64,000 bases of DNA from a virus (taxonomy: Duplodnaviria > Caudoviricetes), in IMG/VR virus record IMGVR_UViG_3300008259_002957; one strand, written 5' to 3'. Of the stretch, positions 14,746-33,637 are shown one piece after another. The notes beneath the pieces are model-generated. The model saw only the letters and a list, made by a program, of their open reading frames with translations. It did no database searches and had not been told where the DNA came from. The translations under genes and the position numbers were made by a program. Position 1 is the first letter of the stretch. Each line of letters starts with the position of its first letter.

Positions 14746-14811
14746 ACCGGTTGACAGTGCCCTGCTCATGTGCTATTGTATATGAGTAGGGCAACACAAG
14801 AGGGAACGAAG

Positions 14812-15096
14812 ATGGGATACTTTCTTTACGATCGGCACGACACTCGCATCGTCAGCAAGGAGTACAAGACTCACGCCGCCGCTCAAGCTCAACTGACTCG
14901 GATGGGCAAGGGTCAATTGCAAACAGATCCTAATCATCCAATCTACTGTTACGGCGTCGCAGAGAAAGAGTACTACTTCCGTCACATTGAGCGCAAGGTT
15001 GTGCGAGTTAACTTGATGAGCGGTGTTGAGTACGAGGAGAGTGTGAACACGCCGTTGGCTTGCTCGCCTGCTTCGGAAACCTACTGGAGCATGTAG
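14812..15096 (+). CDS. Early hypothetical protein
   Basis: MGYFLYDRH...; ends TPLACSPASETYWSM; own cassette. Confidence 0.8.
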   Translation: MGYFLYDRHDTRIVSKEYKTHAAAQAQLTRMGKGQLQTDPNHPIYCYGVAEKEYYFRHIERKVVRVNLMSGVEYEESVNTPLACSPASETYWSM

Positions 15097-15162
15097 AAAC
15101 TGGTTGACACGGCCAGCGGGTCGTGTTATAACTGTGACATAGGGCAACACAACGAGGGCACG

Positions 15163-15354
15163 ATGGAAAGCAAACCGTTCTACGTCAAGCAAGACTTTGT
15201 CAAACTCCTGCGTCAGAAGCGCGGCACAGAATACACCATTGGCTGGTTGGCTATGGCTTACTCCATGCCGCCCGTGCCCGAAGCACAGGAGATGGAGATC
15301 ATCCAAAAGGAAATCCCCGTCCTGCAGGCTTTGCCGGACTACGACGGCATCTAA
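15163..15354 (+). CDS. Early hypothetical protein
   Basis: Own cassette, GAGGGC RBS. Confidence 0.75.
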   Translation: MESKPFYVKQDFVKLLRQKRGTEYTIGWLAMAYSMPPVPEAQEMEIIQKEIPVLQALPDYDGI

Positions 15355-15426
15355 GAGGTTGACAGCACAGACTAGACGTGCTATAACTAACACATAGAGC
15401 AACACAGTGTAGAGGGAATATACACA

Positions 15427-15837
15427 ATGGGAACTCGTTCAACTATTGGGATCCAGAACGCAGACGGCACTGTCACTGGCATCTACTGCCACTGGGACGG
15501 CTACTTGAGCCACAACGGCCGAATCCTTGCTGAGAACTACACGGACGAAGACAAGGTGCGTAAGTTGATCGGTCTTGGCGATATCAGCAGCCTGGGACCG
15601 CACATTGGCAATCAGCACGACTTTGACAATGCTCCTACGCTGTCGTGCAATGCTTACGGTCGCGATCGTGGCGAGAAGGATGTTGCTGCTCGCACTCTGC
15701 ACAACTGGCGTCAGTTCTGTGCTGAGAACGGGCAGGAGTATGACTACCTGTTCACTCCTGGTGCTGGCTGGCAGGTTCGCACCTACAACGGCATCTACGA
15801 CCTTGCTCGTGCATTGGCAACAGAAACCGTAGAATAA
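15427..15837 (+). CDS. Early hypothetical protein (widespread phage family, MGTRSxIG...IYCHWDGY)
   Basis: Recognisable N-terminal motif; own cassette. Confidence 0.85.
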   Translation: MGTRSTIGIQNADGTVTGIYCHWDGYLSHNGRILAENYTDEDKVRKLIGLGDISSLGPHIGNQHDFDNAPTLSCNAYGRDRGEKDVAARTLHNWRQFCAENGQEYDYLFTPGAGWQVRTYNGIYDLARALATETVE

Positions 15838-15900
15838 TGGTTGACACAGCCCTGCTCATGTGCTATTGTATATGAGTAGGGCAACACAAGAGGGACTGAG

Positions 15901-16140
15901 ATGTACAAGATCTATGGCGACTATGGTTACACCAGCGAATGCCTGCTGCATGAAGCTGACACTCGTAGCGAAGCCCTGCGTTGGGCAGACCGTTACACTG
16001 CCGACGACTTTGGCGGCTATGCTGTGATTGATGTTGCGGTTCACCTCAGCAACGGCGAATACAGCACCATCCAGACCTACCGTGCAGAAGACTACGAGTA
16101 CGAAGGCGATGACGATTTTGCGCTGATTGATGAATTCTAA
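15901..16140 (+). CDS. Early hypothetical acidic protein
   Basis: Own cassette. Confidence 0.75.
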   Translation: MYKIYGDYGYTSECLLHEADTRSEALRWADRYTADDFGGYAVIDVAVHLSNGEYSTIQTYRAEDYEYEGDDDFALIDEF

Positions 16141-16209
16141 GGTTGACAACCACTGTAGATGTGTTAGTATGTGTGAGTAGAGAGAAACATAGCAGAGAGG
16201 GAACACGCT

Positions 16210-16575
16210 ATGACCAACGCTATCGCAATCCGCAACGAAATGCTGGAACAGGCTGCAACCGTTGCCACGGACTATGTTCGTGAGTGGACTGCTAAGACGG
16301 GCGGCAATGCCTACGGTGAACCCATGTATTGCGGCTTCGCTTGGGTCACTGTATATCCTCAGCACAAAGGCAACACCCGCGACGGCAAAGCTGAGCGCAA
16401 GGTGCTGGAAGACATGGGCTTCCGCAAAGACTGGACGGGCAAGGCTTACGAATACTGGAACCCCAGCAAGTGGGGCGGGCAGAGCATGGATGTAAAGGAA
16501 GCAGGCGCTCGTGCTGCCGCTGACGTGCTTCGCAAGTATGGATTCACTGCCTACGCTGGTTCGCGAGCAGACTGA
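16210..16575 (+). CDS. Early hypothetical protein
   Basis: CGFAWV...GGQSMDVKEAGARAAADVL; own cassette. Confidence 0.8.
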   Translation: MTNAIAIRNEMLEQAATVATDYVREWTAKTGGNAYGEPMYCGFAWVTVYPQHKGNTRDGKAERKVLEDMGFRKDWTGKAYEYWNPSKWGGQSMDVKEAGARAAADVLRKYGFTAYAGSRAD

Positions 16576-16646
16576 GGCAGAAAGAGGTTGACAGGGCGGC
16601 AACGCCCTGTTATAACTAACACATAGGGCAACAAGGAGACGACGAG

Positions 16647-16880
16647 ATGGCACGTTCGATTCGCGAAATTACCAACCGTATCTATGAAGCCGTTGACGAA
16701 GGCGTGCTGACTTGGCAGCAGATTGCCGAAGCCGCTCTGACGTATATGAGCGAAAGCGATGTGGCTGACATGGCTCACAACGAAGAGTTCTTCATGTATG
16801 AAGACGAGGAAGAAGACGAGGAAGAGTGGTCGCCCTACACCGCAGACTTCAATGACAAAGGTTCCATCCACCACTACTGA
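16647..16880 (+). CDS. Early hypothetical acidic protein
   Basis: Own cassette. Confidence 0.75.
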   Translation: MARSIREITNRIYEAVDEGVLTWQQIAEAALTYMSESDVADMAHNEEFFMYEDEEEDEEEWSPYTADFNDKGSIHHY

Positions 16881-16953
16881 TTTTGGTTGACACACCCCTA
16901 CTTGTGTGCTATAACATACGAGTAGGGCAACACTGCTAGAGGAGCACAAGCAG

Positions 16954-17349
16954 ATGGCATACGGTGATTTCGTTACTGAGGTTGGTGAAACGGTTGGTAT
17001 TGTTCGTCAACATCGCCACGGCACGATCTTGATGAGCCGCTTTGGCACTGTAACCAAAGTCAACGGACACGGACACATCTTTGTCCAGTGCGAAGACCGG
17101 GAGTATCGCTTCACCAAGACGGGAGATGCTTACAAAGACTCCTACGGTCCTAGTTTGATGCAGGCTGCTAAACTGCGTATGATCCAGGAGAGTGAGACTC
17201 GTCGCAAGGAGCAGGTGCGTGTGGCTCGTGCTATGGAGCAGACGCTCAAGGAGGGATACTCCTATGCGGGTCGCTTCTTCCCCACCGCAGAGCGTATCGC
17301 GGCTCTGAAAAATCTTTTGTCAGAGTTGGAAAATCTGGTTGACCATTGA
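16954..17349 (+). CDS. Early hypothetical protein
   Basis: Own cassette; 3' end runs through the next -35 box. Confidence 0.75.
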   Translation: MAYGDFVTEVGETVGIVRQHRHGTILMSRFGTVTKVNGHGHIFVQCEDREYRFTKTGDAYKDSYGPSLMQAAKLRMIQESETRRKEQVRVARAMEQTLKEGYSYAGRFFPTAERIAALKNLLSELENLVDH

Positions 17350-17395
17350 GTCAACCAGTGCTATAACTAACACATAGGGCAACGAGGAGCACACG

Positions 17396-17581
17396 ATGAA
17401 CGACGCAAGAGCAGAACAGTGGCAGCGGCTGATCGACCTGCTTGACGAAGCAGATGCGATTCAGCAGAAACTGCTGGGCGACGAGGATGCTGCGGCGTGC
17501 TATGAGTTCCACAATCAGTTGAACAACATGGCCGACGAGTTCACTGACTTGGCCAACAAAGATGGCTACGAAATCGGTTGA
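17396..17581 (+). CDS. Early hypothetical protein
   Basis: Own cassette; TGA stop lies within the next TTGACA. Confidence 0.75.
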   Translation: MNDARAEQWQRLIDLLDEADAIQQKLLGDEDAAACYEFHNQLNNMADEFTDLANKDGYEIG

Positions 17582-17642
17582 CACTGTAGACTAGACGTGC
17601 TATAACTAACACATAGGGCAACACAGTAGAGGGAACTACAAG

Positions 17643-17912
17643 ATGCTGACACTGGAACACACCGTCCGTTCGTACGCCGGCAAGCCTGGCTGCATGTGCG
17701 GCTGCAACGGAGTCTACAACGAAGGCGACCGTGCTCGCAAGATGGCGCTGACGGCGCTGCTGAAGAACCCAGAGGTTCGCTTGCAGGCTTGGAAGCCCAG
17801 CGATGATGCTGGTTGCTTGTTTGTTGAAACTGATACTCGCAACCGTGTGCTGTACCTCACTGAAGCAGGTGTAGCCGCTGCCCGTGCTATGGGCGTGAAA
17901 GAGGAGAAATAA
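17643..17912 (+). CDS. Early hypothetical protein
   Basis: YAGKPGCMCGCNG motif; own cassette. Confidence 0.75.
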   Translation: MLTLEHTVRSYAGKPGCMCGCNGVYNEGDRARKMALTALLKNPEVRLQAWKPSDDAGCLFVETDTRNRVLYLTEAGVAAARAMGVKEEK

Positions 17913-17913
17913 G

Positions 17914-18156
17914 ATGTCTGTTATGGAACTGTTGAAGACTGCTTTTCCGCGCACCAAGAGCACCAAGCACACTGCGTTCTGCGAACGTATCCCAATGGTG
18001 GTTTTTGAACTTGTGGAAGAGCAAGTGCGGACTGAGATGCGGGCAAAAGGTTATGTCACTCGCTATCGTGGGCCGCGTGTGAGCAATAACACCTACGGCA
18101 ATCCTACAACCACTCGGCGCTGCGACGCAACTCATGTTCTGCTCTATCGCAAATAA
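17914..18156 (+). CDS. Early hypothetical protein
   Basis: Second cistron with GGAG RBS. Confidence 0.7.
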   Translation: MSVMELLKTAFPRTKSTKHTAFCERIPMVVFELVEEQVRTEMRAKGYVTRYRGPRVSNNTYGNPTTTRRCDATHVLLYRK

Positions 18157-18217
18157 TGGTTGACACAGGTCACGATTCGCGCTATAACTAACACACAACG
18201 AGGCAATGGAGGGTAAC

Positions 18218-18772
18218 ATGCCGAACTGGTGCAATAACTCAATTGAAATCGAAGGTCCTGTAGAGAAGATTGCTGCACTGTGGGCTGAGGCTTCCGCTGG
18301 CGGCGAAGGCGCGGCTCTGCTCAATGCTCTGTGTCCGATGCCAGCAGAACTCTTAGAAGGTGAAGCCTGGTATGGCTGGCGTGTGGCACACTGGGGAACC
18401 AAGTGGGACATTGACATGCAAGGTCTCGAGTTTGTTGACAACGAACAAGGTCGTGCCTGTATCACAGGTTGGTTTGATTCGGCTTGGAGCCCGCCTGTTG
18501 ATGCGTTCCAGTCTTATGCTAATGAGAATCCTGATGTAGACATGGAACTCAAATACTTCGAGCCCGGCATGTCGTTTGTAGGTGTTTGGGATAGTGAAGG
18601 TGGTGATGCCTATTGGGATGGCGTTGGCGAGTTGCTGGACACCACTGAAGAGCAAGACGCTGTTCTGTTTGAACTGTTGGAACACTTTGATGTGGCCGGT
18701 TGGTTCGAGACTGACGAAGAAGAGAACCTTGAGATCGACCTTGACGGCGGTGTGAGTGCCATCAACGAATAA
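18218..18772 (+). CDS. Api92/YubB-like ferredoxin-like domain protein (DUF1281-like)
   Basis: MPNWCNN...WYGWRVAHWGTKWD...FDSAWSPP...YFEPGM. Confidence 0.85.
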   Translation: MPNWCNNSIEIEGPVEKIAALWAEASAGGEGAALLNALCPMPAELLEGEAWYGWRVAHWGTKWDIDMQGLEFVDNEQGRACITGWFDSAWSPPVDAFQSYANENPDVDMELKYFEPGMSFVGVWDSEGGDAYWDGVGELLDTTEEQDAVLFELLEHFDVAGWFETDEEENLEIDLDGGVSAINE

Positions 18773-18841
18773 TAATGGTTGACACACCCCTACTCGTGTG
18801 CTATAACATACGAGTAGGGCAACGCTGCTGAGGAGCACACG

Positions 18842-19117
18842 ATGGCACGTAAGACGATCGAAGTTGGCAAGATACTGCGGATGGCTAACACCTTCCTTGC
18901 TGCAACTAACACCCGCGACGACGAGCGTGAAGGCGTGTGTGCGCTGCTGGAGGCTGTGCTGTTTGAGTCGGGCAACTATGAAGGCTTCCGCTATTTGGAA
19001 GGCAGTGACTATCCGGAAGAAGTTCCAAGCGGTAGCCGCCGCTTCTACTTCGCAAGCAAGACTGTGCTTGCAGATGAAGCAGAGGAACTTCGCAACGTCA
19101 ACCGCATCCGTGTGTGA
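18842..19117 (+). CDS. Early hypothetical protein
   Basis: Own cassette. Confidence 0.75.
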   Translation: MARKTIEVGKILRMANTFLAATNTRDDEREGVCALLEAVLFESGNYEGFRYLEGSDYPEEVPSGSRRFYFASKTVLADEAEELRNVNRIRV

Positions 19118-19127
19118 GGAGAACCGC

Positions 19128-19292
19128 ATGAACCCTTTGGCTTTTTTTGCAATGGTAGGGTTTGTACTGTTGCTGATCGTCAGCACCGCAGCCTACACCT
19201 TTTCCAAATGCGGCTGGTATGCCTTTGCACTGGGCAAAGGTGCTGGGATGGCTGCCGTCACTGGCATGTGCGATAAACTCAACGAGGAATAA
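19128..19292 (+). CDS. Small membrane protein
   Basis: MNPLAFFAMVGFVLLLIVS..., GAGGAG RBS. Confidence 0.6.
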   Translation: MNPLAFFAMVGFVLLLIVSTAAYTFSKCGWYAFALGKGAGMAAVTGMCDKLNEE

Positions 19293-19293
19293 C

Positions 19294-19413
19294 ATGGACT
19301 GGACTATTGAAGAATACCTAGCGTTCGAACAGCACCTGTTGGAACAAGCAGAAAAAGATGCAGACGATTATGAGATTCCGGTTGACGAACCTGTCTACTG
19401 GTGCTATAACTAA
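19294..19413 (+). CDS. Small acidic protein overlapping the next promoter
   Basis: MDWTIEEYL...VDEPVYWCYN; GAGGA RBS; last codons encode the -35 and -10 boxes. Confidence 0.5.
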   Translation: MDWTIEEYLAFEQHLLEQAEKDADDYEIPVDEPVYWCYN

Positions 19414-19440
19414 CACATAGGGCAACAAGAGGACCACAAG

Positions 19441-19722
19441 ATGAACAACTTTGCAACCGCCATCACTGCAATCCACAAGATGGACAACGACGAACTGAAC
19501 GCTGTGGTTCGTGCAATCAAAGACCGCCGCACCTATCTTGCTCGTCAGCAGGCTGTGACCTTTGCTGTGGGCGACCGTGTGTCGTTCGCTGCTCGTGGTA
19601 TGCAGGTGCTGGGTACCGTTACCAAGATCAACATCAAGACCGTCCAAGTTCGTCAGAGCAACACTGCTACGGTTTGGAAAGTCCACGCAAGCCTGCTCCG
19701 GCCAGTGAAAGAAATGGCTTGA
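19441..19722 (+). CDS. Early hypothetical protein (SH3/KOW-like C-terminus)
   Basis: FAVGDRVSF...GTVTKINIKTVQV...WKVHASLL. Confidence 0.8.
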   Translation: MNNFATAITAIHKMDNDELNAVVRAIKDRRTYLARQQAVTFAVGDRVSFAARGMQVLGTVTKINIKTVQVRQSNTATVWKVHASLLRPVKEMA

Positions 19723-19775
19723 CAGGTTGCTGTATACGTGCTATAACTAACACATAGAAACACAAGAGGGACACG

Positions 19776-19964
19776 ATGAAAGATTACATGACACTGATCG
19801 CAGTCATTGACCGGTTGGGCGATATTGCAGAACTTCCGTCAGCTAAGATCCGCGAAGCACTGGATCAATACATTGCTCAGTTGGAAACAGAGGTTGCTTA
19901 TGTTGAACGAGAGATGGAACGTGAACACCAGATCGATGTGATGTTCGAGAACGTGCCAGTATAA
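19776..19964 (+). CDS. Early hypothetical protein
   Basis: Own cassette. Confidence 0.75.
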   Translation: MKDYMTLIAVIDRLGDIAELPSAKIREALDQYIAQLETEVAYVEREMEREHQIDVMFENVPV

Positions 19965-19967
19965 ATA
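19960..19967 (+). promoter_or_regulatory. T4-type late promoter for the tRNA cluster
   Basis: TATAAATA 6 nt upstream of the first tRNA. Confidence 0.6.
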
Positions 19968-19973
19968 GACAAC

Positions 19974-20049
19974 GCCCGGTTAGCCCAAAGGTAGAGGCAA
20001 CAGACTTAAAATCTGTCAAGCGTCGGTTCGACCCCGACACTGGGTACCA
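19974..20049 (+). tRNA. tRNA-Leu(UAA) with short variable loop
   Basis: Hand-folded cloverleaf: acceptor GCCCGGT/ACTGGGT, anticodon arm ACAGA-CTTAAAA-TCTGT, T arm GTCGG-TTCGACC-CCGAC, ACCA end. Confidence 0.9.
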
Positions 20050-20055
20050 AACATT

Positions 20056-20132
20056 GGGGGATTAGCTCAATTGGTTAGAGCGTCGGACTCATAATCCGCA
20101 GGTTATCGGTTCAAGTCCGGTATCCCCTACCA
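20056..20132 (+). tRNA. tRNA with CAU anticodon (Ile2 or elongator Met)
   Basis: TAGCTCAATTGGTTAGAGC D arm, CTCATAA loop, GGTTCAAGTCC T arm, CCA end. Confidence 0.92.
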
Positions 20133-20134
20133 TA

Positions 20135-20211
<77 letters not shown>

Positions 20212-20229
20212 ACTTTACAAGAGAGCAAG

Positions 20230-20637
20230 ATGAGTTACACTGAAAAGACTATGGTCGCTGGTGAAGCAGAGATCATCTACACCACCTTCTCCTACTGGAA
20301 CTTGGTGTTTGGGTTTGGCATTGGCCTTGCCCTTGCTCCGATCACCCTTGGTTTGAGTATGCTGTTCGCACTTGCGGCTGTGCTGGATCACTACTTCACA
20401 GAGTATTCCATTACCACAAGGCGTGTGTTGACCAAGCGTGGTGTGATCCGGCGGCGGGTGAGTGAAGTGAACATCCGCAAGGTCGAAGGTGTTTCGGTGC
20501 GTCAAACGGTGCTGGGACGCATCTTGGGTTATGGTGATGTGATCGTGCGTGGCACTGGCACAGAGCATTTGACCATCCGGATGGTGCAGGCCCCGCTGTT
20601 AGTGAAAGTTTCTATCCAGAATCAGGTTGACAAGTAA
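20230..20637 (+). CDS. Bacterial PH-domain (bPH_2) membrane protein
   Basis: TM segments, then EYSITTRRVLTKRGVI...IRKVEGVSVRQTVLGRILGYGDVIVRGTG. Confidence 0.85.
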   Translation: MSYTEKTMVAGEAEIIYTTFSYWNLVFGFGIGLALAPITLGLSMLFALAAVLDHYFTEYSITTRRVLTKRGVIRRRVSEVNIRKVEGVSVRQTVLGRILGYGDVIVRGTGTEHLTIRMVQAPLLVKVSIQNQVDK

Positions 20638-20682
20638 GTGTGTCTGTCGTATAGTATACAAGTAGGCAAAGAGGGAAGCAAC

Positions 20683-21684
20683 ATGTCTAACGTTAAATTT
20701 CTTGATGGTACTTTTAAACTGCGCGGCAAAGATGTAGATATGTCGGGCATGGTTCTGCCCATGTTGGAAGGTTTTAAGGTTGGTGTTCGTGGCGGCTACG
20801 TGACTGTGGATGGTAAGGCAGTCCCTGGGTTTCCTGATCGTGCGATTAAGGTGTATGTTGCAGGTGCAGGCTCGGTTGAAGAGACCGAAGACTCCGTGGC
20901 CGCCACTGCCAGAGAAGAATCCGACGAAGAAGTGATTGAACGACTGCGTGAACGCTTTGATATGCTGTCGGACATGACCAGAGCAGTCAAGCGCGGCGAA
21001 GTACGTGCTATGATCGTAAGTGGTCCTCCGGGCGTGGGCAAGAGCCACGGTGTTGAAGAAGTTCTTGATCGCTACAAGATGATGGAGACTCTTGGTGCTG
21101 CCAAGACTCACGAAGTTGTCAAAGGTGCTATGAGTGCGTTGGGTCTCTATGCCAAACTGTTCAAGATGAGTGCTCCAGGCAACATTGTTGTGTTTGACGA
21201 CTGTGACAGTGTGTTCTCAGACGAACTGAGCCTGAACATCCTCAAGGCTGCACTGGACTCAAAGAAGACTCGTACTATCCACTGGAACACTGATAGCCGA
21301 CTGTTGCGTCAAGAAGGTATTCCAGGTTCGTTCAAGTTTGAAGGTAGTGCTATCTTCATCACCAACTTGAAGTTCGACAAGGTCAGAGGTAAACTGCGTG
21401 AACACCTTGCAGCATTGGAATCACGCTGCCACTATATCGACTTGACCATTGACACTGATCGTGAGAAGATGCTGCGTATCCAACAGATCGTTCGTGACGG
21501 CATGTTGGATGAATATGAGTTTGACGAAGAAATGCAACAGGAGATTGTTGACTTCGTTGATGTGAATAAGAAGCGACTGCGCGAACTTTCCCTCAGGTCC
21601 GTGCTCAAGGTCGCCGACTTGGCAAAGGCCTTTCCTACCAAATGGGAAGCCGTTGCCGAAAGCACTGTGATGCGTCGAGACTGA
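20683..21684 (+). CDS. P-loop (AAA-like) ATPase conserved in T4-like phages
   Basis: Walker A GPPGVGKS, Walker B VVFDDCD, IFITN, ALESRC. Confidence 0.85.
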   Translation: MSNVKFLDGTFKLRGKDVDMSGMVLPMLEGFKVGVRGGYVTVDGKAVPGFPDRAIKVYVAGAGSVEETEDSVAATAREESDEEVIERLRERFDMLSDMTRAVKRGEVRAMIVSGPPGVGKSHGVEEVLDRYKMMETLGAAKTHEVVKGAMSALGLYAKLFKMSAPGNIVVFDDCDSVFSDELSLNILKAALDSKKTRTIHWNTDSRLLRQEGIPGSFKFEGSAIFITNLKFDKVRGKLREHLAALESRCHYIDLTIDTDREKMLRIQQIVRDGMLDEYEFDEEMQQEIVDFVDVNKKRLRELSLRSVLKVADLAKAFPTKWEAVAESTVMRRD

Positions 21685-21699
21685 CTCCGCATCACAGTA

Positions 21700-21840
21700 T
21701 GCTACACGGACCGCCCTCATCCGTGTAGCAGCCCAGGTAGACAGTGTGCCCTCGCTGGTCTACCGACTACGGAGAAGCGTCGCCCTCACGCCCTCTCCAC
21801 AGTGCCCTAGCAGGATGCCCTCCCTGCTAGGGCTTTTTTA
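21700..21840 (+). ncRNA. Candidate cuckoo-like sRNA: four hairpins, each with GCCCUC in the loop
   Basis: Stems 21700-21710/21720-21730, 21736-21746/21753-21764, 21771-21780/21788-21798, 21804-21814/21823-21833; ends in a U-tract. Confidence 0.75.
21804..21840 (+). terminator. Rho-independent terminator (also the last hairpin of the candidate sRNA)
   Basis: GCCCTAGCAGG-atgccctc-CCTGCTAGGGC-TTTTTT. Confidence 0.9.
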
Positions 21841-21923
21841 TTGCAATCGCAGTCTTAGAGGTTGACAGGGCGGAACTGCTGTGCTATACATAACAAGTAA
21901 GCAACGCATAGAGGGAATACACA

Positions 21924-22223
21924 ATGCGTAAAGTTACTGTCCTCCGCAAGTTCCAAACTGTTAAAGCAATGCGCGACTGTATTGCTGCTTATACTGCAAA
22001 TGTTTTTGCAGACGAACTGCGCGAAGCTGCTGTTGCAATGTATGCAAATGACATTGCGAGAGCTGTTGTTGCGCTTAACGAGTTTATTAGAACGAGTGAC
22101 GCTGTTGCATTGCACAAGCGTATTATGTATTGGGACACAGACGTGCGGGAAGCATTTGTTAGCGTGTTGCACTACATAGAGCAAGAGCAAATGGTGCCTG
22201 CTACGGAGTTTGCTGTGCTGTAA
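21924..22223 (+). CDS. Early hypothetical protein (largely YC-free)
   Basis: Own cassette; no TC/CC between 21954 and 22197. Confidence 0.75.
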   Translation: MRKVTVLRKFQTVKAMRDCIAAYTANVFADELREAAVAMYANDIARAVVALNEFIRTSDAVALHKRIMYWDTDVREAFVSVLHYIEQEQMVPATEFAVL

Positions 22224-22290
22224 CAACGAGGAGTTGACAGCACAGTCTATCCGTGCTATACAATACAAATAGGGCAACAAGGAGCACACC

Positions 22291-22491
22291 ATGTCTAATG
22301 CACGTCTTGCAGAAATTGCTGCAAAGCACAGCGCAGCAATCCACGTCTACAAAACCACAGGAGAAATTGACAGCACGTCAGATCTCTACTTTGAAGTATA
22401 TGAATATTTCGCAAACGAAATGGACTCTAAAGTCCGCCGCAGTGCTGCACGCCAGTTTGACTACATAACAGAAAAAATCCGCAGCCTGTAA
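22291..22491 (+). CDS. Early hypothetical protein
   Basis: Own cassette. Confidence 0.75.
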   Translation: MSNARLAEIAAKHSAAIHVYKTTGEIDSTSDLYFEVYEYFANEMDSKVRRSAARQFDYITEKIRSL

Positions 22492-22558
22492 GAATGTGGT
22501 TGACACAGCCCTGTAGATATGCTATAACGTATGAGTAGGGCAACAAAGGACAACACCA

Positions 22559-22738
22559 ATGATCAAGATTACTATTCCAGCAGTGTCGGTTCGCGAAGCA
22601 GTCGACATCCGCGACAGAATTCAGGGCGTGATCCTTGTGAAGGGTGAGACGGCTGTGATTGGCGATGGCGGTGTTGTGATCACCACAGACAATCCTGTGC
22701 GTGTGTGCCTTGAACTGCAAGGCGATGGCTTCATCTAA
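22559..22738 (+). CDS. Early hypothetical protein (59 aa, not in the ORF track)
   Basis: Read by hand: MIKITIPAVSVREAVDIRDRIQGV...LQGDGFI*; own cassette. Confidence 0.7.
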   Translation: MIKITIPAVSVREAVDIRDRIQGVILVKGETAVIGDGGVVITTDNPVRVCLELQGDGFI

Positions 22739-22893
22739 CCCCGGCCAGGCGGGCTAAGTCATTGAAAACAATGGCAAATTTTTCTCGCACAAAAATGCTA
22801 AGTCGTTGTTTTTAAACGAATCATTTTGCTTGCAAACTGTGCTGCATAGTGTATAACTGTACTTGTAAGCAACACAGCAGAGGGAAACACGCT

Positions 22894-23100
22894 ATGCAAA
22901 ACACAGTTAAACTTGTGGACGTTGAGTATAACTATAAAAGCGAGCTTTGCGCTACGCTTACAAACAGCGTTAAAGCTGTGCGCTGCGAGGACGTGCTGTA
23001 TTTGGACTTTGTAAGCTATGCTGCAATGTGTGCAGTATACGAGGAGTGGTGCGAGCTTGCGGACGCGGGCGAAGAGGGTTATTTTTACGTAGCAGCGTAA
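22894..23100 (+). CDS. YC-free island ORF 1
   Basis: MQNTVKLVDV...; GAGGGA RBS; no Pro. Confidence 0.75.
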   Translation: MQNTVKLVDVEYNYKSELCATLTNSVKAVRCEDVLYLDFVSYAAMCAVYEEWCELADAGEEGYFYVAA

Positions 23101-23198
23101 AAAAACTTGCAGCACACAGCACTTTTTAGTTGACAAGTGCTGTGTGCTGTGCTATACATAACTTGTAAGCAACACAGCACAGCAGAGGGAAACACGCT

Positions 23199-23486
23199 AT
23201 GCAAAACACAGTAGCAAATACAGCAAATACTAATTACGTTTTTGTAATGCTTGATGACGCTACAAACGCAATTGTACTGCGTATTAATAAAACTGTTGAC
23301 GTTTTTTGTAATAGTGCAAACGACATAATTGCTGCATTTAAACAATATAATATTACGGACTGCGACACTATTATGTGCAGCAGTGACGTGGATTTTGCTA
23401 CGGAGTTTGACTATGCGTACGACAGTGCAGTACACGACATGCTTGACGAAGCTTTTGACGCACTAAATTTTAAACAATACGTTTAA
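23199..23486 (+). CDS. YC-free island ORF 2
   Basis: MQNTVANTAN...; no Pro, Gly or Trp. Confidence 0.75.
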   Translation: MQNTVANTANTNYVFVMLDDATNAIVLRINKTVDVFCNSANDIIAAFKQYNITDCDTIMCSSDVDFATEFDYAYDSAVHDMLDEAFDALNFKQYV

Positions 23487-23576
23487 AAAAACAGCAGCAC
23501 ACAGCACTTTTTACTTGACGAGTGCTGTGTGCTGTGCTATAACTTACACACGGGCAACACACGAGAGGGACTGCAC

Positions 23577-23768
23577 ATGACACGCGAAGAACTGTTTGCT
23601 AAAATTGCTGCAATTGCTGCTGACGCATACGACAGCACGGATGCTGACGAAGTGCAAAGCTGGGATGCATACGAAGCAGCGAAACAGATTGTTATTGCAA
23701 TGCAGACGGTTGGCTACGACATAACATATATGTTGGAGCAAATTGAGGAAGACGCTGACGAAGCGTAA
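23577..23768 (+). CDS. YC-free island ORF 3 (acidic)
   Basis: MTREELFAK...; no Pro. Confidence 0.75.
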   Translation: MTREELFAKIAAIAADAYDSTDADEVQSWDAYEAAKQIVIAMQTVGYDITYMLEQIEEDADEA

Positions 23769-23864
23769 CACAAAAAAAACTTGCAGCGCACAGCACTTTT
23801 TACTTGACGAGTGCTGTGTGCTGTGCTATACATAACTTGTAAGCAACGCAAGAGGGAACACGCT

Positions 23865-24152
23865 ATGCACACAGTAATTGCAGAATTTTTGCAGTGTTTT
23901 GCAGCATATATGCAGCATGTAGCCGCGCTAGCGGACGACACGGAACTCGAGCCCGCGGATGCGGAAGACGCTGTTAAAATTGCACAGCAACTTCCTTTGC
24001 TGTATGCAGTTGTTTACAGTCCCCGTGCAGCACAATGCGCTGCGCTTGATGCGCTAGAAGTCGACTGCATTAACATGCTCGACACCAACGTGCGCGATTT
24101 CTTTGCTAACCTGTATACTGTTAACGCACTGTTCCGCAGCAACGAGTTGTAA
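23865..24152 (+). CDS. Island-edge ORF 4
   Basis: MHTVIAEFL...; same promoter family as the island ORFs. Confidence 0.7.
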   Translation: MHTVIAEFLQCFAAYMQHVAALADDTELEPADAEDAVKIAQQLPLLYAVVYSPRAAQCAALDALEVDCINMLDTNVRDFFANLYTVNALFRSNEL

Positions 24153-24239
24153 TAAAAACTTGCAGCACACAGCACTTTTTACTTGACGAGTGCTGTGTGC
24201 TGTGCTATACATATTGCATAGGGCAAACAGGAGGGCAAG

Positions 24240-24380
24240 ATGAAGATTCAAATTAAAGCCGAAGACATCCAGCGCCGCGATCCGGTTGCTCGTGCATTGG
24301 CAGACAGTCGGTTCCAGCCTCGCACTGTGCGTGACAGAACCAAATACACCCGCAAACAGAAACACCGCAAAGCCTACTAA
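24240..24380 (+). CDS. Small basic ArfA-like protein (46 aa, not in the ORF track)
   Basis: Read by hand: MKIQIKAEDIQRRDPVARALADSRFQPRTVRDRTKYTRKQKHRKAY*. Confidence 0.6.
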   Translation: MKIQIKAEDIQRRDPVARALADSRFQPRTVRDRTKYTRKQKHRKAY

Positions 24381-24404
24381 GGCCCCGCTGTTAAGGAGAT
24401 CGAC

Positions 24405-24581
24405 ATGACTTTCTACCATTACTTCAAGACCGTGTGCCTCTTGCTTGCTAGCCTTGTGGCGTTCATTGCAGTGATTAGCCCCGAGACTGTGGGCAAATGG
24501 CAGGCCCGCAAAGACGTTGCCTACGACAGTATCTGGATCGAATGGATCAGTGACTGTGATTGCACAGAGCCACTGGAGTAA
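24405..24581 (+). CDS. Small membrane protein
   Basis: Read by hand; AAGGAG RBS; one hydrophobic segment. Confidence 0.6.
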   Translation: MTFYHYFKTVCLLLASLVAFIAVISPETVGKWQARKDVAYDSIWIEWISDCDCTEPLE

Positions 24582-24670
24582 GCGACTTTCCGCTTACTGC
24601 GGATAAAACCCGTTGACTCACCTGTAGATCATGCTATAAGTATAATACGAACGACAAAAAGGAGAAACCA

Positions 24671-25270
24671 ATGCGGATGATTCACATCCTCGGCGGCGTC
24701 GCTTCTTCAGCCGTGATCGTTGCAATGGCAGTGGTTTACTTGACGGCAGATGAGGCAAAAGCAGCCGTTGACCCCGTAGAAATCGTATATGTTGACCGAG
24801 TAGTAGAACGAGTGGTGGAGCGTGTGGTGCATGTGCCCATGCCCACCAGACCTGGCCAAGATCCTGAGGCTATCTTTGCTGATGCCGGCACAGAAGACCT
24901 ATACTGTCTAGCACAGAACATCTACTTTGAAAGCAGAGGCGAGAGCAAGGTAGGCCAAGAGTTTGTAGGTTGGGTTACACTGAACAGAGTTCAGAACTCA
25001 GACTTCCCCAGCGAGATCTGCAGGGTAGTGTGGCAGGACAGCCAGTTCTCATGGACACATGACGGCAAGAGCGACCAACCACGAGATGCTGCGGCTTGGG
25101 CAACAGCACAGACCATTGCCCTTGAAGTGGTGCAGGCCTATGGTGTAGAACGTGATCCAACCGAAGGCGCAACCTACTTCCATGCTACCTCAGTCCGACC
25201 TAGTTGGGCCAAGAAGTTCGAACGTGTGGTACAGATCGATAACCATATCTTCTACGTAGATAGAGGTTGA
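24671..25270 (+). CDS. Cell wall hydrolase, SleB/Hydrolase_2 family
   Basis: CLAQNIYFESRGE...VTLNRV...QFSWT...DPTEGATYFHA...V.P.WAK...IDNHIFY. Confidence 0.92.
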   Translation: MRMIHILGGVASSAVIVAMAVVYLTADEAKAAVDPVEIVYVDRVVERVVERVVHVPMPTRPGQDPEAIFADAGTEDLYCLAQNIYFESRGESKVGQEFVGWVTLNRVQNSDFPSEICRVVWQDSQFSWTHDGKSDQPRDAAAWATAQTIALEVVQAYGVERDPTEGATYFHATSVRPSWAKKFERVVQIDNHIFYVDRG

Positions 25271-25325
25271 CACACTGGTTGCCCTGTGCTATACATAACG
25301 TATAGGGCAACACAGGAGACACCAG

Positions 25326-25526
25326 ATGTGGCAAGTAAGAACACAGTTCTCCAAACCTAACGCAGACAATCCTACTGGGCCTTTGGAGTGGAACGCGGTG
25401 TTGGTGGCGACAGAAGCAGAAGCAGAAGCATGGTGGCACACTCGGACCACAGTGAAGAGTTCTGCTCGTAGAGTCTGCACCATGTTCGATCCTGAAGGAA
25501 ATTTAGTTAGAGTCCTGTTCAAATAA
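25326..25526 (+). CDS. Early hypothetical protein
   Basis: Own cassette. Confidence 0.7.
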   Translation: MWQVRTQFSKPNADNPTGPLEWNAVLVATEAEAEAWWHTRTTVKSSARRVCTMFDPEGNLVRVLFK

Positions 25527-25592
25527 CGGTTGACAACCCAGTTGCCCTGTGCTATACATAACACATAGGGCAACACAACAACGAGGCACAAG

Positions 25593-25664
25593 ATGAAACT
25601 TCCGATCCTGCTTTCCGCAATTATGATTGCTGTCGCTGCACATCACTACTTCACTTTCGCCTAA
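25593..25664 (+). CDS. 23-aa hydrophobic peptide
   Basis: MKLPILLSAIMIAVAAHHYFTFA*, directly after a cassette leader. Confidence 0.45.
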   Translation: MKLPILLSAIMIAVAAHHYFTFA

Positions 25665-25676
25665 GGGGGCTGCGCT

Positions 25677-25865
25677 ATGCTGAACTCACAAGAACTCACA
25701 GAGCGTGGTTGGAACATCTATCGTTCCAACAACTGGATTGGTCGTCATCGTGAAACTGGTCGGAAGATCACTGCTGGCACACACCTCACCCTGCTGCACC
25801 TGCTGAACTACGAAGAGTGGCAGAACTCGCAAACTTGGAGCACCGTGCTGGAACAAACTGGTTGA
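25677..25865 (+). CDS. Early hypothetical protein
   Basis: AAGGGGG RBS; stop within the next TTGACA. Confidence 0.65.
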   Translation: MLNSQELTERGWNIYRSNNWIGRHRETGRKITAGTHLTLLHLLNYEEWQNSQTWSTVLEQTG

Positions 25866-25924
25866 CAGCACACCAAACAGATGTTATAGTTAACGCATAG
25901 GGCAACACACTAGAGGGCAAACAC

Positions 25925-26326
25925 ATGTATACCTTTGATGAACAGATTGTTAGCGACCTCCACAAGGACGCTCGCGGCTATCGTCCGGATGAGTACTTCT
26001 GGGAAGAGTGGAGCCAGTGCGGCGACCTTACTCGTCAATCCATGTGGGACAACCTGCTGGAGGAACTGGCAGCGGAGACAGCACGGCAGCGGGACGCTTA
26101 TGCTCGTGCAGAGATCCACTTCCACCAGCGTGTCCAAGGCACTATGTTGGCAGGTGCCGAAGACGAACTCACTGCCATCCGTTGGATCCTTGAGGCCGAA
26201 CAGTTCACTAACTCGGACTTGGCCTACGGTTCGGACTATGTGGCTTGGCACTTTGGACTGCCCTACAAAGGCGAATTTGATCAGCAGATCCAGACTGTGA
26301 TCACGGCTATGGAGTCTGAGAACTAA
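25925..26326 (+). CDS. Early hypothetical protein
   Basis: MYTFDEQIVSDLHKDARGYRP..., a common phage N-terminus; own cassette. Confidence 0.8.
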   Translation: MYTFDEQIVSDLHKDARGYRPDEYFWEEWSQCGDLTRQSMWDNLLEELAAETARQRDAYARAEIHFHQRVQGTMLAGAEDELTAIRWILEAEQFTNSDLAYGSDYVAWHFGLPYKGEFDQQIQTVITAMESEN

Positions 26327-26395
26327 GTGGTTGACACAGTGTAACGGCCGTGCTATACATACGACATAGGGCAACACACTAGAGGGACTACACCA

Positions 26396-26758
26396 ATGAT
26401 GAAGTATGCAATCCTGTTCTCCATCCTTGCTTTTCCAGTGTTTGCACACAGCGGCGGTCTCGATCGCAACGGCTGCCACAACGACAACATCAATGGTGGA
26501 TACCACTGCCATCGTGAATCATCCAACAGCGAAGTTGCTCACAACGACAACAACGACCTTGAACGGCTGTTGATGGGTATCGTGGCTGTTGGTGTTATTT
26601 CTGCTGCGATTGCTCCTCAATCAGAACCTGTGTACCACCAGCCCGCAGTCCGTGCATGTGTGGTTGAAGAAGTAGAGTATACTCCGACTCGCGTTTACGT
26701 GGCAGTGATCGATACTTGTGCTGGACACATCCTAGATCAATATTCCTACAATCGCTGA
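26396..26758 (+). CDS. YHYH-domain exported protein
   Basis: Signal peptide, then HSGGLDRNGCHND...YHCH. Confidence 0.8.
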   Translation: MMKYAILFSILAFPVFAHSGGLDRNGCHNDNINGGYHCHRESSNSEVAHNDNNDLERLLMGIVAVGVISAAIAPQSEPVYHQPAVRACVVEEVEYTPTRVYVAVIDTCAGHILDQYSYNR

Positions 26759-26828
26759 ACTAAGTGGTTGACAACCCTGCTCAAGCCTGCTATACATAAC
26801 ACATAGGGCAACACAAGAGGAACACACC

Positions 26829-27859: not shown

Positions 27860-28232
27860 TGTGGATACTCATTGATTCCCAGGACTACTACACTACAAAA
27901 ACAGAGTTTGAGCAGCGTGAGATTGAATACATCAATCCCTGTCTCAACCTGTTTGCTCCGTACGCAATAGAAGCATTGCAACCTTGTTAGCCTTGCGAGA
28001 TGGTTGTGCGATAGAGTTCTCTGTTGGATTGCAGCGTGTACTTGAAAATTTTACTGTGCATCCCAAGCGTATTGTGAAAATGGTGTAAAATTCGAAACCC
28101 TGTCATACGGCCCCTAGCGGCGTGTCGTTAGACGCCTAGCGACGTGGTTTTGTATTTTCGGTATTTTTATACAGCGATAGTACTACGATGGCTGATCGGT
28201 GTCGGTTGGTGTTGTAAACTGTGAAAATTTTG

Positions 28233-32134: not shown

Positions 32135-33637
32135 TCAAAACACACGTACTCCGTAGTGTTGTGCAAAATCTCTAGCCTCTCTCCAGGTATTGACCATCGG
32201 CCGACCTTTGATGTTGAGACTTGTGTTCAACAGCATAGGGCAACCGGTCTCTGCATACCACTGTTCCAGTAAACGTCTAAAACCCGGGTTGTCTGCTTTG
32301 CCCACTGTTTGCACTCTGCTGGTACCGTCGTGGTGTACAATTGCTGGAAATTCTTCCGGGTATCTGCAATGTGCAGTGTATTGCATGTAAGGGCCCACGG
32401 GTCCGTCGAAATATTCTTCTGCGTGTTCTTCAAGTATAGCAGGTGCAAATGGTCTAAACTGTTGACGCTGCTTGATGTCATTGACCCTGGACTTGATATC
32501 TGCGCCACGTGGGTCAGCCAGTAGACTGCGATTGCCCAAGGCTCTAGGTCCAAACTCAGCAGCACCATTGGCCACACCTGCAATGCCCACAGTTTTGAGT
32601 TCTTGGATCAATTCTTTTACAGGGTAGGGTCGGTTGATTGTGAACCCTAGATATGGACCCTGCCACTCAATTGGCTGTTGATACTTGGCCAACACTGCAC
32701 CCACACTGGACCCAGAGTCGCCTGGATTGGGCATGATCCATACCCTGTTCCAATCTTTATAGATAGTGCTGTTAGCAGCACAGTTTAGGGCACAGCCGCC
32801 CATTAAAACTAGATTACCCGAAGTAGATTTCCACCTAGCCCAGTTACTGATTATTTTAAGAAAGTACTGATAAACTGCCTGGGTAGCGGCAGCAATGTCA
32901 AAGAGGTCTTGTTCTGTGTTGAGATCCAGTCGCCAACCTCTGCACCCCCGATGAAGATTGTTTTTAAAAACAATCCTAGGACTGTTATCCGGATCAATAT
33001 GTTGAACAAAGTCTTGCATGATGTCGTTGAACAGTCTGTGGGGGTTGCCGTATGCTGCCATACCCATAAGGATATATTCATCCTCGTTGGCTTTGAGTCC
33101 TATACGGTCAGTCATAGCACTGTACCACAGACCAAGACTGTGTGGATAACGTTGTGTATAAATTCGTTTTAGATCCGTGCCCTTGCCTTCCCAAATGCTG
33201 AGAGTTTCGAATTCACCAATACTGTCTAGAACAACGACAGTGGCAGAATCAAAACCACTTGTAAAATATCCAGCACTAGCATGGCTACAATGATGGTCAA
33301 CAAATGATACAGGAGCGTGGATGCCATAGTCAAGCAGATAATTGCGAATATTGTTTTCTTTAGCCTGCCACCCTTGCCCTGCCAGAAGTTGTCGAATTGT
33401 TTTTTTGTATGGTTTTTCATACCAGACAACTTCGTCAGGTTTGCCAAAATTATTGACGGCATATTCAATCAATCCATCTCGAAATATCGAATGACTACAA
33501 TGCAGATTAGGGTCGTTTTTTATACCACTAAATCTTTCACTGTGACTTGCAAATTCTAATTTTAATTTGTTTGCATCTTTATCAAACACTGCTAGTGCAG
33601 CATCGTGACTGTTAGCACTAATTCCCCAAATTTTCAT
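32135..33637 (-). CDS. Carbamoyltransferase (NodU/CmcH family)
   Basis: HDAALAV, HHCSHA, DSIGE, MGMAAYG, GGCALNCAAN, EFGPRALGNRS, FRPFAP, LLNTSLN. Confidence 0.95.
   Translation of the reverse strand: MKIWGISANSHDAALAVFDKDANKLKLEFASHSERFSGIKNDPNLHCSHSIFRDGLIEYAVNNFGKPDEVVWYEKPYKKTIRQLLAGQGWQAKENNIRNYLLDYGIHAPVSFVDHHCSHASAGYFTSGFDSATVVVLDSIGEFETLSIWEGKGTDLKRIYTQRYPHSLGLWYSAMTDRIGLKANEDEYILMGMAAYGNPHRLFNDIMQDFVQHIDPDNSPRIVFKNNLHRGCRGWRLDLNTEQDLFDIAAATQAVYQYFLKIISNWARWKSTSGNLVLMGGCALNCAANSTIYKDWNRVWIMPNPGDSGSSVGAVLAKYQQPIEWQGPYLGFTINRPYPVKELIQELKTVGIAGVANGAAEFGPRALGNRSLLADPRGADIKSRVNDIKQRQQFRPFAPAILEEHAEEYFDGPVGPYMQYTAHCRYPEEFPAIVHHDGTSRVQTVGKADNPGFRRLLEQWYAETGCPMLLNTSLNIKGRPMVNTWREARDFAQHYGVRVF

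Follow-up and report, generated by a model that had tools for sequence, protein, structure and literature searches.

The hairpin array and the ATPase gene

Analysis of a 64,000-nucleotide (nt) stretch of phage DNA (IMG/VR virus record IMGVR_UViG_3300008259_002957; hereafter the window) showed an array of five tandem hairpins (21664-21839) that forms the 3' untranslated region (UTR) of a gene for an AAA-type ATPase of unknown function (20683..21684, plus strand; Pfam AAA; phrog_1250, E = 1e-80). The gene was preceded on the same strand by a sigma-70-type early promoter (TTGACA, 17 nt, TATAGT; 20627..20655; 11 of 12 consensus matches) and a leader containing AGAGGGAAG (20656-20682). The ATG at 20683, behind the promoter at 20627, is probably the start of the ATPase, and the stop codon was located at 21682-21684. 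A homologue in Aeromonas phage 25 is annotated nrdC.10, and the ATPase is similar to the uncharacterised NrdC.10 of T4-type phages, while PDB and NCBIfam sequence searches with it returned no relative.

The fold of 21650-21860 (211 nt) had a minimum free energy (MFE) of -94.1 kcal/mol (z = -6.98), which none of 200 dinucleotide shuffles equalled. All hairpins were on the plus strand. The first, H0 (21664-21698, 14 bp), spanned the ATPase stop codon, and its 5' arm was coding (..T V M R R ..). H1 (21700-21730, 11 bp) carried the 9-nt loop CCGCCCUCA (DNA CCGCCCTCA) at 21711-21719, H2 (21736-21764, 11 bp) carried GCCCUC at loop positions 21748-21753, and H3 (21766-21803, 12 bp with bulges) carried it in the loop at 21782-21787. 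H4 (21804-21839, the hairpin itself 21804-21833) had 11 bp, 8 of them G-C, and the loop AUGCCCUC (DNA ATGCCCTC) at 21815-21822, followed by U6. An earlier reading of the same DNA (the original prediction) had described these hairpins, loops and coordinates, and all were found in place; a further copy of GCCCUC in the 3' arm of H3 (21790-21795) was absent from its list.

H4 was the top terminator-like site in 13.5-28.5 kb and is the predicted intrinsic terminator of the ATPase unit. It had been called the only strong terminator of the early module, and it was indeed the best, but a weaker site at 28121 (11 pairs, only 5 G-C, T-poor tail) closes the module. The array spanned the distance from the stop codon to the H4 terminator with its T6, as expected of a 3' UTR-derived base-pairing small RNA (sRNA). 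GCCCTC was not enriched in the window overall (10 copies, 11.5 expected), and 5 of its 6 plus-strand copies lay in a single 110-nt span of the array.

A search of the 64 kb against Rfam at the gathering threshold returned three tRNAs only and no family for the array, and at E <= 10 the region 21600-21900 gave only sub-threshold noise, such as NsiR1 with 21 bits against a cut-off of 39. ARAGORN found no tRNA-like element in the array. A small peptide encoded in the array was considered and rejected, the sole ATG opening 9 codons within a non-conserved stem.

Early-gene leaders

The candidate targets of the array were about 26-28 early cassettes on the plus strand (14751..26815), which are small genes with a promoter each. 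The order in a cassette was TTGACA-N17-TATAAC, about 6 nt, (A/G)UAGGGCAAC, a Shine-Dalgarno (SD) sequence (GAGGGA/C, GGAG or GAGGAG) and ATG. At up to one mismatch, ATAGGGCAAC occurred 28 times against 3.5 expected, a number reached in 0 of 100 shuffles, and nearly all copies were on the plus strand between 14.8 and 26.8 kb. The 10-mer (A/G)TAGGGCAAC, which bears AGGGC, begins some 6 nt downstream of the -10 box; by this distance it probably makes up the initial ten nucleotides of each early transcript and lies outside the ribosome-binding site. The description of GAGGG(A/C) as the ribosome-binding site applied to about half of the cassettes, and the remainder had GGAG or GAGGAG.

AGGGC or GAGGG was present in 24 of the 26 promoter-anchored early leaders (-35..+3) and in 1 of 40 late/middle starts, the latter being starts of long genes on the opposite strand. 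The early leaders contained AGGGC in 16 cases, GAGGG in 15 and both in 7. The expectation that nearly every early leader, including that of the ATPase, has one or both motifs was therefore borne out. The best loop-leader duplex averaged -14.0 kcal/mol for early and -7.1 kcal/mol for late leaders (Mann-Whitney P = 6e-10). The cassette next to the array had its promoter and leader (CAUAGAGGGAAU) at 21862..21926 on the plus strand, with its gene at 21924-22223.

Some promoter spacers included the leader motif in inverted form (GTTGCCCTGT, ahead of ATAGGGCAAC). Such copies were found on the minus strand at 25278-25287 and 25541-25550, beside the leaders at 25302 and 25565, and also at 16604. Judging by the sequence, the promoter region of read-through transcripts could form a hairpin in which the 5' motif of the leader is concealed. 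This possible hairpin is similar to the PeSL promoter stem-loops of T4-type phages, which are repeated early promoter cassettes.

A separate motif, (GG)CCCCGCTGT(A/T)A, was observed at 20589 and 24381 in the window and also in intergenic positions of distant relatives (G005, 372 kb; G002, 330 kb). Its sites were L033 at about 4090, L039:3150, L040:13826 and 14040, and, on the reverse strand of L044, about 5000 and 19070. Its presence in distant relatives therefore points to a conserved element of the whole phage group.

Conservation of the array in uncultured relatives

The same kind of element was found directly 3' of the homologous ATPase gene in about 100 uncultured relatives in IMG/VR. When IMG/VR was scanned with two 15-16-nt hairpin tips, array matches lay 30-180 nt after a same-strand ATPase homologue, while in L129 the array was farther out, about 700 nt after it. 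About half of the tip matches were lone chance matches without an ATPase, and these served as a negative control. The match in L078 stood among three GCCCTC copies about 500 nt from the locus end, with no ATPase in the fetched stretch.

Relatives with 62-83% identity in the ATPase carried H0 and 2-5 further hairpins immediately after the gene, with GCCCUC in the loops and unrelated stems. Across about 55 non-redundant relatives the loops were kept and the stems varied, which is what the original prediction had expected. The 40 non-redundant relatives with GCCCTC loops (type A) contained 2-5 (mode 3) such hairpins after the ATPase stop, and the array ended in a T-run in 26 of the 40. The motif was invariably on the transcribed strand and in loops, and the contiguous stem at array motifs averaged 6.0 bp, compared with 2.6 bp outside arrays and 3.1 bp in shuffled flanks. 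The H1 tip GGACCGCCCTCATCC recurred in many relatives' arrays with different outer stems.

The coding 5' arm made H0 alignable, and per-sequence folding anchored on its Thr codon showed a four-way compensatory change: the 3' arm had T/G/C/A opposite the wobble base A/C/G/T, which held for 41 of the 47 non-redundant loci. MAFFT with RNAalifold gave 0 predicted pairs for H0, whose loop lengths vary.

Co-variation of loops and leaders

An unbiased k-mer count over 46 loci gave GAGGGC as the top 6-mer at -16..-3 of open reading frame (ORF) starts (168 of 732) and GCCCTC as the top 6-mer in MFE hairpin loops after the ATPase (108 of 193), and these two are exact reverse complements. The 256-kb relative G001 contained 14 gene-strand GAGGGC at 0.4-8.5 kb and the array (3 copies) at 8.3 kb, and both motifs were scarce in its other 248 kb; G003 was similar. 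Most relatives had GAGGGCAA at the SD position, 3-8 nt before the ATG, and hence a match of 6-8 nt. The window and G002 had a split form, with a 5'-terminal AUAGGGCAAC plus a GAGGGA SD.

Three pairing types were distinguished. Type A combined GCCCUC loops with GAGGGC(AA) leaders, and type B combined (UU)CGCUCC loops with GGAGCG(AA) leaders. Type B was a sister ATPase clade (56-66% identity) with the hairpin loop A(U/A)UCGCUCC, and included the complete 372-kb G005, where each of the 18 plus-strand GGAGCG in 34 kb of the early region has an ATG 3-6 nt downstream. The type B loop AUUCGCUCC matched the leader GGAGCGAA over 8 bp (L020-L031, L134, L136). Type C, an outgroup clade of 76 IMG/VR loci, had one hairpin with an 11-12-bp stem and a CCUC/CUCC-repeat loop of about 20 nt, which held a 10-nt exact complement of its own ATPase leader (GGAGGAGCAA or GGAGAGGAGC-like GAGGAGCAAG). 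Among the type C variants, CUCUCUCC loops went with GGAGAGAG leaders.

The loop motif tracked the leader motif of each clade, in agreement with what had been predicted for relatives. Loci with GCCCTC loops had 155 GAGGGC and 0 GGAGCG at the SD position, and loci with TCGCTCC loops had 0 and 15, a co-variation whose Fisher P value is inflated because each type is one ATPase clade. Type A loops reached -10 kcal/mol or lower with 48% of A leaders and 6% of B leaders, and type B loops did so with 2% of A leaders and 17% of B leaders. In the ATPase tree each type was essentially one well-supported clade, and the deeper branches were without the element.

In the single-hairpin type B subclade (L020, L022-L031), a small Cys-rich ORF with CxxC-type spacing overlapped the ATPase stop, and the AUUCGCUCC terminator hairpin followed about 800 nt after it. 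Scaling of loop number with regulon size was rejected, as single-hairpin type B phages still have 3-6 GGAGCG leaders per 7 kb. A CGCTCC pair at 19.3 kb of G005 was likewise discarded as a second array and is a coding Gly/Ala repeat.

Pairing energies and metatranscriptomes

The pairing of GAGGGC with GCCCUC was predicted at -10.4 kcal/mol and that of the 8-mers at -13.0 kcal/mol, while the type B loop and leader gave -9.5 kcal/mol and, with the longer match, -12.4 kcal/mol. With the 3' end of 16S rRNA the same leaders formed just 4 bp (-6.1 and -5.6 kcal/mol). The predicted loop-leader duplexes exceeded the leader-16S pairing by 4-7 kcal/mol, so that on these leaders the ribosome should lose to the loops. 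Selectivity over ordinary SDs would come from the GC or CG extension that follows the SD core.

Six metatranscriptomes contained 5-7% of the words of the 2.4-kb stretch around the array. Exact-match contigs on the array came from X15 and X17, one each (21604-21816 and 21616-21782), and X16 and X18 had exact contigs on the next gene (21924-22223); none of the contigs mapped on the 2.4 kb covered the ATPase body. In X15, X17 and X20, river and freshwater metatranscriptomes from three studies, 46-75% of the array words were present, and these made up their entire share of the stretch. The array-only contigs fit a stable 3' RNA fragment and are a hint of one. Pieces on the tRNA region carried mismatches and are therefore attributed to other organisms.

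Source phage and neighbouring genes

The window contained genes for terminase, DnaB, helicases and tail fibres, and three tRNAs. The large terminase subunit (TerL) and the ATPase had 54% and 48% identity to their homologues in Pseudomonas jumbo phage PA5oct, which places the source replicon, by protein similarity, as a phage related to PA5oct. BLASTN against cultured phages found no DNA-level relative of the window, and the same DNA was present in lake, river and other freshwater metagenomes.

A tRNA cluster (Leu-TAA, Met-CAT, Arg-TCT; 19974-20211) was located directly upstream of a bPH-domain gene (20230-20637) and the ATPase unit. A Nol-like carbamoyltransferase gene (phrog_1601, E = 3e-90; 32135-33637, minus strand) stood among the replication genes and is a putative auxiliary metabolic or modification gene.

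Two repeated gene families were observed in relatives. In L152:84-2144, a relative without the anti-leader hairpin, about twelve tandem 60-codon genes with a 175-nt period lay upstream of the ATPase homologue. In L133:780-1950, from a 372-kb relative, at least six paralogous genes of 65-81 codons each followed a leader CCAGTGAGAGATA(T)AAA-ATG, which is apparently a second, distinct repeated leader family.

Comparison with known systems

Cuckoo RNAs of alphaproteobacteria (CcsR1-4 / RSs0680, NfeR1, alpha-r14) consist of 2-4 neighbouring hairpins whose stems vary strongly and whose C-rich, anti-SD-like loop motif is conserved (PMC4615179), and the CcsR RNAs are processed from the ccaF1 mRNA, which lies upstream and carries them in its 3' UTR (PMC8034643). 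The original prediction had compared the array to these RNAs. The likeness held for the adjacent hairpins, the variable stems and the 3' UTR position, the ccaF1 arrangement being parallel to the unit of ATPase and array, and type C relatives carry CCUCCUCC-like loops. It did not extend to the loop motif, which is GCCCUC, CGCUCC or CCUC-repeats and not CCUCCUCCC, and no cuckoo covariance model matched at E <= 10 in 21600-21900. The array is also phage-borne and not encoded on an alphaproteobacterial chromosome, and its motif is tuned to a private leader extension (GC/CG after the SD core) and changes with it.

In S. aureus RNAIII (UCCC) and RsaE/RoxS, C-rich loops pair with the G-rich SDs of many mRNAs and block initiation (PMC4615179). 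The array shares with them several hairpin loops with a C-rich motif, while these RNAs are host-encoded, have another sequence and target ordinary SDs. We know of no private code or clade-specific co-variation described for them. In Staphylococcus aureus, the 3' UTR of the icaR mRNA bears a C-rich anti-SD motif whose partner is that mRNA's own SD; this is a single motif on a single mRNA, with no tandem array and no shared leader regulon. The CsrB/RsmY/RsmZ families had no Rfam match in the window, and the array loops lacked GGA, the motif that such sponges repeat in their hairpin loops to bind CsrA/RsmA.

The c4 antisense RNA of phages P1 and P7 (Rfam C4, RF01695) is phage-encoded and processed, its loops pair with sites covering the ribosome-binding site, and its specificity differs between related phages through matched loop and target changes. 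Such phage-specific matched specificity was also seen in the array. c4 differs in that it acts on one operon (icd-ant) of a temperate phage by two different loops, a' and b', whose a1b1/a2b2 targets lie upstream of icd-ant, with no repeated loops and no regulon of about 25 genes; the window showed no Rfam match to C4 and no antirepressor operon, and the targets were about 26 separate cassettes.

In T4, RegB cleaves early SDs at GGAG (PMC3014915, PMC1702504). The role proposed for the array is that of RegA and RegB, which shut off many early mRNAs post-transcriptionally at their ribosome-binding regions, with the difference that the T4 effectors are proteins and the effector proposed here is an RNA. 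In Cluster K mycobacteriophages, start-associated sequences (SAS) consist of an SD core with flanking bases that have no pairing partner in 16S rRNA, and they precede the start codon by 3-7 nt at many non-structural genes; the authors left open whether the partner is RNA or protein, and each K1 genome is reported to have exactly one reverse-orientation copy (PMC3203893). By analogy, a hairpin-loop context of the lone inverted copy would suggest an anti-SAS RNA. SAS and PeSLs resemble the present system on the target side only, with conserved SD-plus-extension leaders and repeated promoter cassettes respectively; the leader motifs differ, and no complementary RNA is reported for SAS.

The original prediction knew of no comparable phage system. 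A 2025 review of phage sRNAs contains no element of this kind (PMC12197685), and a literature search on the motifs and on phage anti-SD sRNAs found nothing equivalent. By its features the array is a predicted member of the anti-SD multi-loop sRNA kind. It is a genuine phage RNA element, conserved and not catalogued before, with a putative function.

Interpretation of the array

The favoured reading, to which we assign a probability of roughly 0.55, is an anti-leader RNA, borne by a 3' UTR, that keeps ribosomes from binding to early mRNAs. The ATPase 3' UTR would be a structured, stable five-hairpin RNA, acting while attached to the mRNA or after cleavage near H0. The GCCCUC loops of four hairpins would pair with AGGGC and GAGGG(C) of the early leaders, that of the ATPase included, and the RNA would compete with the 30S subunit and lower early-gene translation as it accumulates, so that feedback or early shut-off may result. 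We infer the pairing in vivo, the trans action, repression as the direction and the timing. Damping by an anti-leader is the most economical model because SD pairing is normally repressive.

Several points weigh against this reading. Shuffled C-rich loops also paired with the purine-rich leaders (-11.5 +/- 1.2 against -14.0 kcal/mol), and 6 of 200 reached the observed value. The contiguous loop match per site in the window was just 5-6 nt, the full 6-8 nt matches being found in relatives. At genes with a GGAG-type SD, about half of the total, the predicted contact of the loop is with the 5'-terminal AUAGGGCAAC instead of the SD. The co-variation amounts to roughly 2-4 evolutionary switches, by the sequence comparison, in which loops and many leaders changed together, and not to dozens. 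No cultured relative had the element among the ATPase homologues of PA5oct, Vibrio VAP7 and D506, Cronobacter S13 and Aeromonas 25, after which came only a short spacer or an ordinary terminator whose loop was unrelated. The array shares the early promoter timing of its targets, and shut-off needs slow accumulation; 4-5 loops facing about 25 strongly promoted mRNAs need high stability or abundance. The metatranscriptome contigs were of low depth (about 3x) and without strand or end information, and DNA carry-over is possible. In nearly all cases the motif also occurs in the leader of the ATPase itself, a pattern that cis-only action would explain just as well.

Self-regulation only in cis, the main rival and one that the original prediction did not raise, with the 3' UTR loops folding, as in icaR, onto the leader of the same ATPase mRNA and setting the ATPase dose, would make the matches to other early leaders a by-product of one homogenised promoter-leader module. 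It could account for much of the pattern; we regard it as unlikely to be the full account, although the element was tied strictly to the ATPase gene in about 100 loci, the ATPase leader had the motif in 30 of 33 type A loci (the full GAGGGC in 20), H0 couples the array to the stop codon, and in type C phages and L147 the matching SD was common to few genes beyond the ATPase. One cis site does not require three to five redundant loops, and the window's own ATPase leader was among the weaker matches (GAGGGA only, with a degenerate 5' motif), other leaders being better. The array-only fragments suggest an RNA outliving its mRNA, and the leaders of 15-25 other genes changed along with the loops. 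Cis and trans action are inseparable by computation, and both may hold. That the pairing is real with a positive or protective effect, either shielding early mRNAs from a host or phage nuclease or excluding superinfecting relatives of the same type, was judged improbable. The clade-specific codes do look like immunity types, and the best-conserved target in the window and G002 was at the probable transcript 5' end (AUAGGGCAAC) rather than the SD; yet in most relatives the SD itself, 3-8 nt before the ATG, is the target, where pairing is normally inhibitory, and evidence for a matching nuclease was absent.

Pairing between RNAs is favoured over a sponge, DNA sites or a plain terminator because the motif complements the leader rather than copying it, and because of its constant transcribed-strand orientation, its placement in loops and the matched change of loops and leaders. 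A protein-binding platform, in which the GCCCUC loops titrate or recruit an RNA-binding protein in the manner of CsrB/RsmZ, perhaps the adjacent ATPase, was given in one form by the original prediction as its alternative and is disfavoured here as quite improbable. Repeated loop motifs on variable stems are the architecture of a sponge, some hairpin tips were conserved past the hexamer (GGA..UCC closing pairs), and the array is closely linked to the ATPase gene. A protein that binds the leader would, however, be titrated by a copy of the leader motif and not by its complement, the GGA motif was absent from the loops, and the loop-leader co-variation over three clades would be left unexplained. 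Very little credence is given to the idea that the array only terminates transcription and stabilises the 3' end, or that it is bound as double-stranded DNA by a protein with further sites in the leader DNA, the loop motif being incidental or acting at the DNA level. In favour of it, H4 makes a good intrinsic terminator, stacking of hairpins protects 3' ends, and GCCCTC and GAGGGC are identical as a duplex DNA site. Against it, the motif was always in loops and on the transcribed strand, with variable stems, 5 of 6 strand-specific copies fell in one 110-nt stretch, and the distant cultured relatives manage with one plain hairpin and an unrelated loop.

The earlier interpretation of the array as a shut-off RNA for the early genes is partly supported: every sequence-level prediction that it made came out positive, and its functional claim is putative.

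A wider form of the anti-leader reading is tentative, and we lean against it while considering it possible. Here a lineage of large uncultured aquatic phages would use a private translation code, in which the SD core plus a clade-specific extension (GAGGGCAA, GGAGCGAA or GGAGGAGCAA) would mark early genes, and one array RNA would be the trans master off-switch of the whole early regulon, 20 genes or more. Since clades differ in this code, the RNA might also exclude superinfecting relatives in a type-specific way.

Significance

To our knowledge, post-transcriptional shut-off of phage early genes is known almost solely from the T4 proteins RegA and RegB, and most phage sRNAs reported to date have a single operon or host genes as their targets. 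The array offers a rule readable from sequence: loops complement leaders, in three specificity types and about 100 uncultured phage contigs. With it comes a new RNA family, whose annotation needs no more than the sequence. It links the NrdC.10-like AAA ATPase, which is widespread in T4-type and jumbo phages and uncharacterised, to a candidate RNA-based control circuit, and it provides naturally orthogonal leader/anti-leader pairs as candidate translational switches for laboratory strains. It also gives a testable answer to why some phages keep conserved SD-plus-extension motifs before many genes. If the private-code reading is true, the RNA would be a counterpart, in lytic jumbo-type phages, of T4 RegA/RegB and of P1/P7 heteroimmunity, and it would suggest a partner for the unexplained start-associated sequences of other phages.

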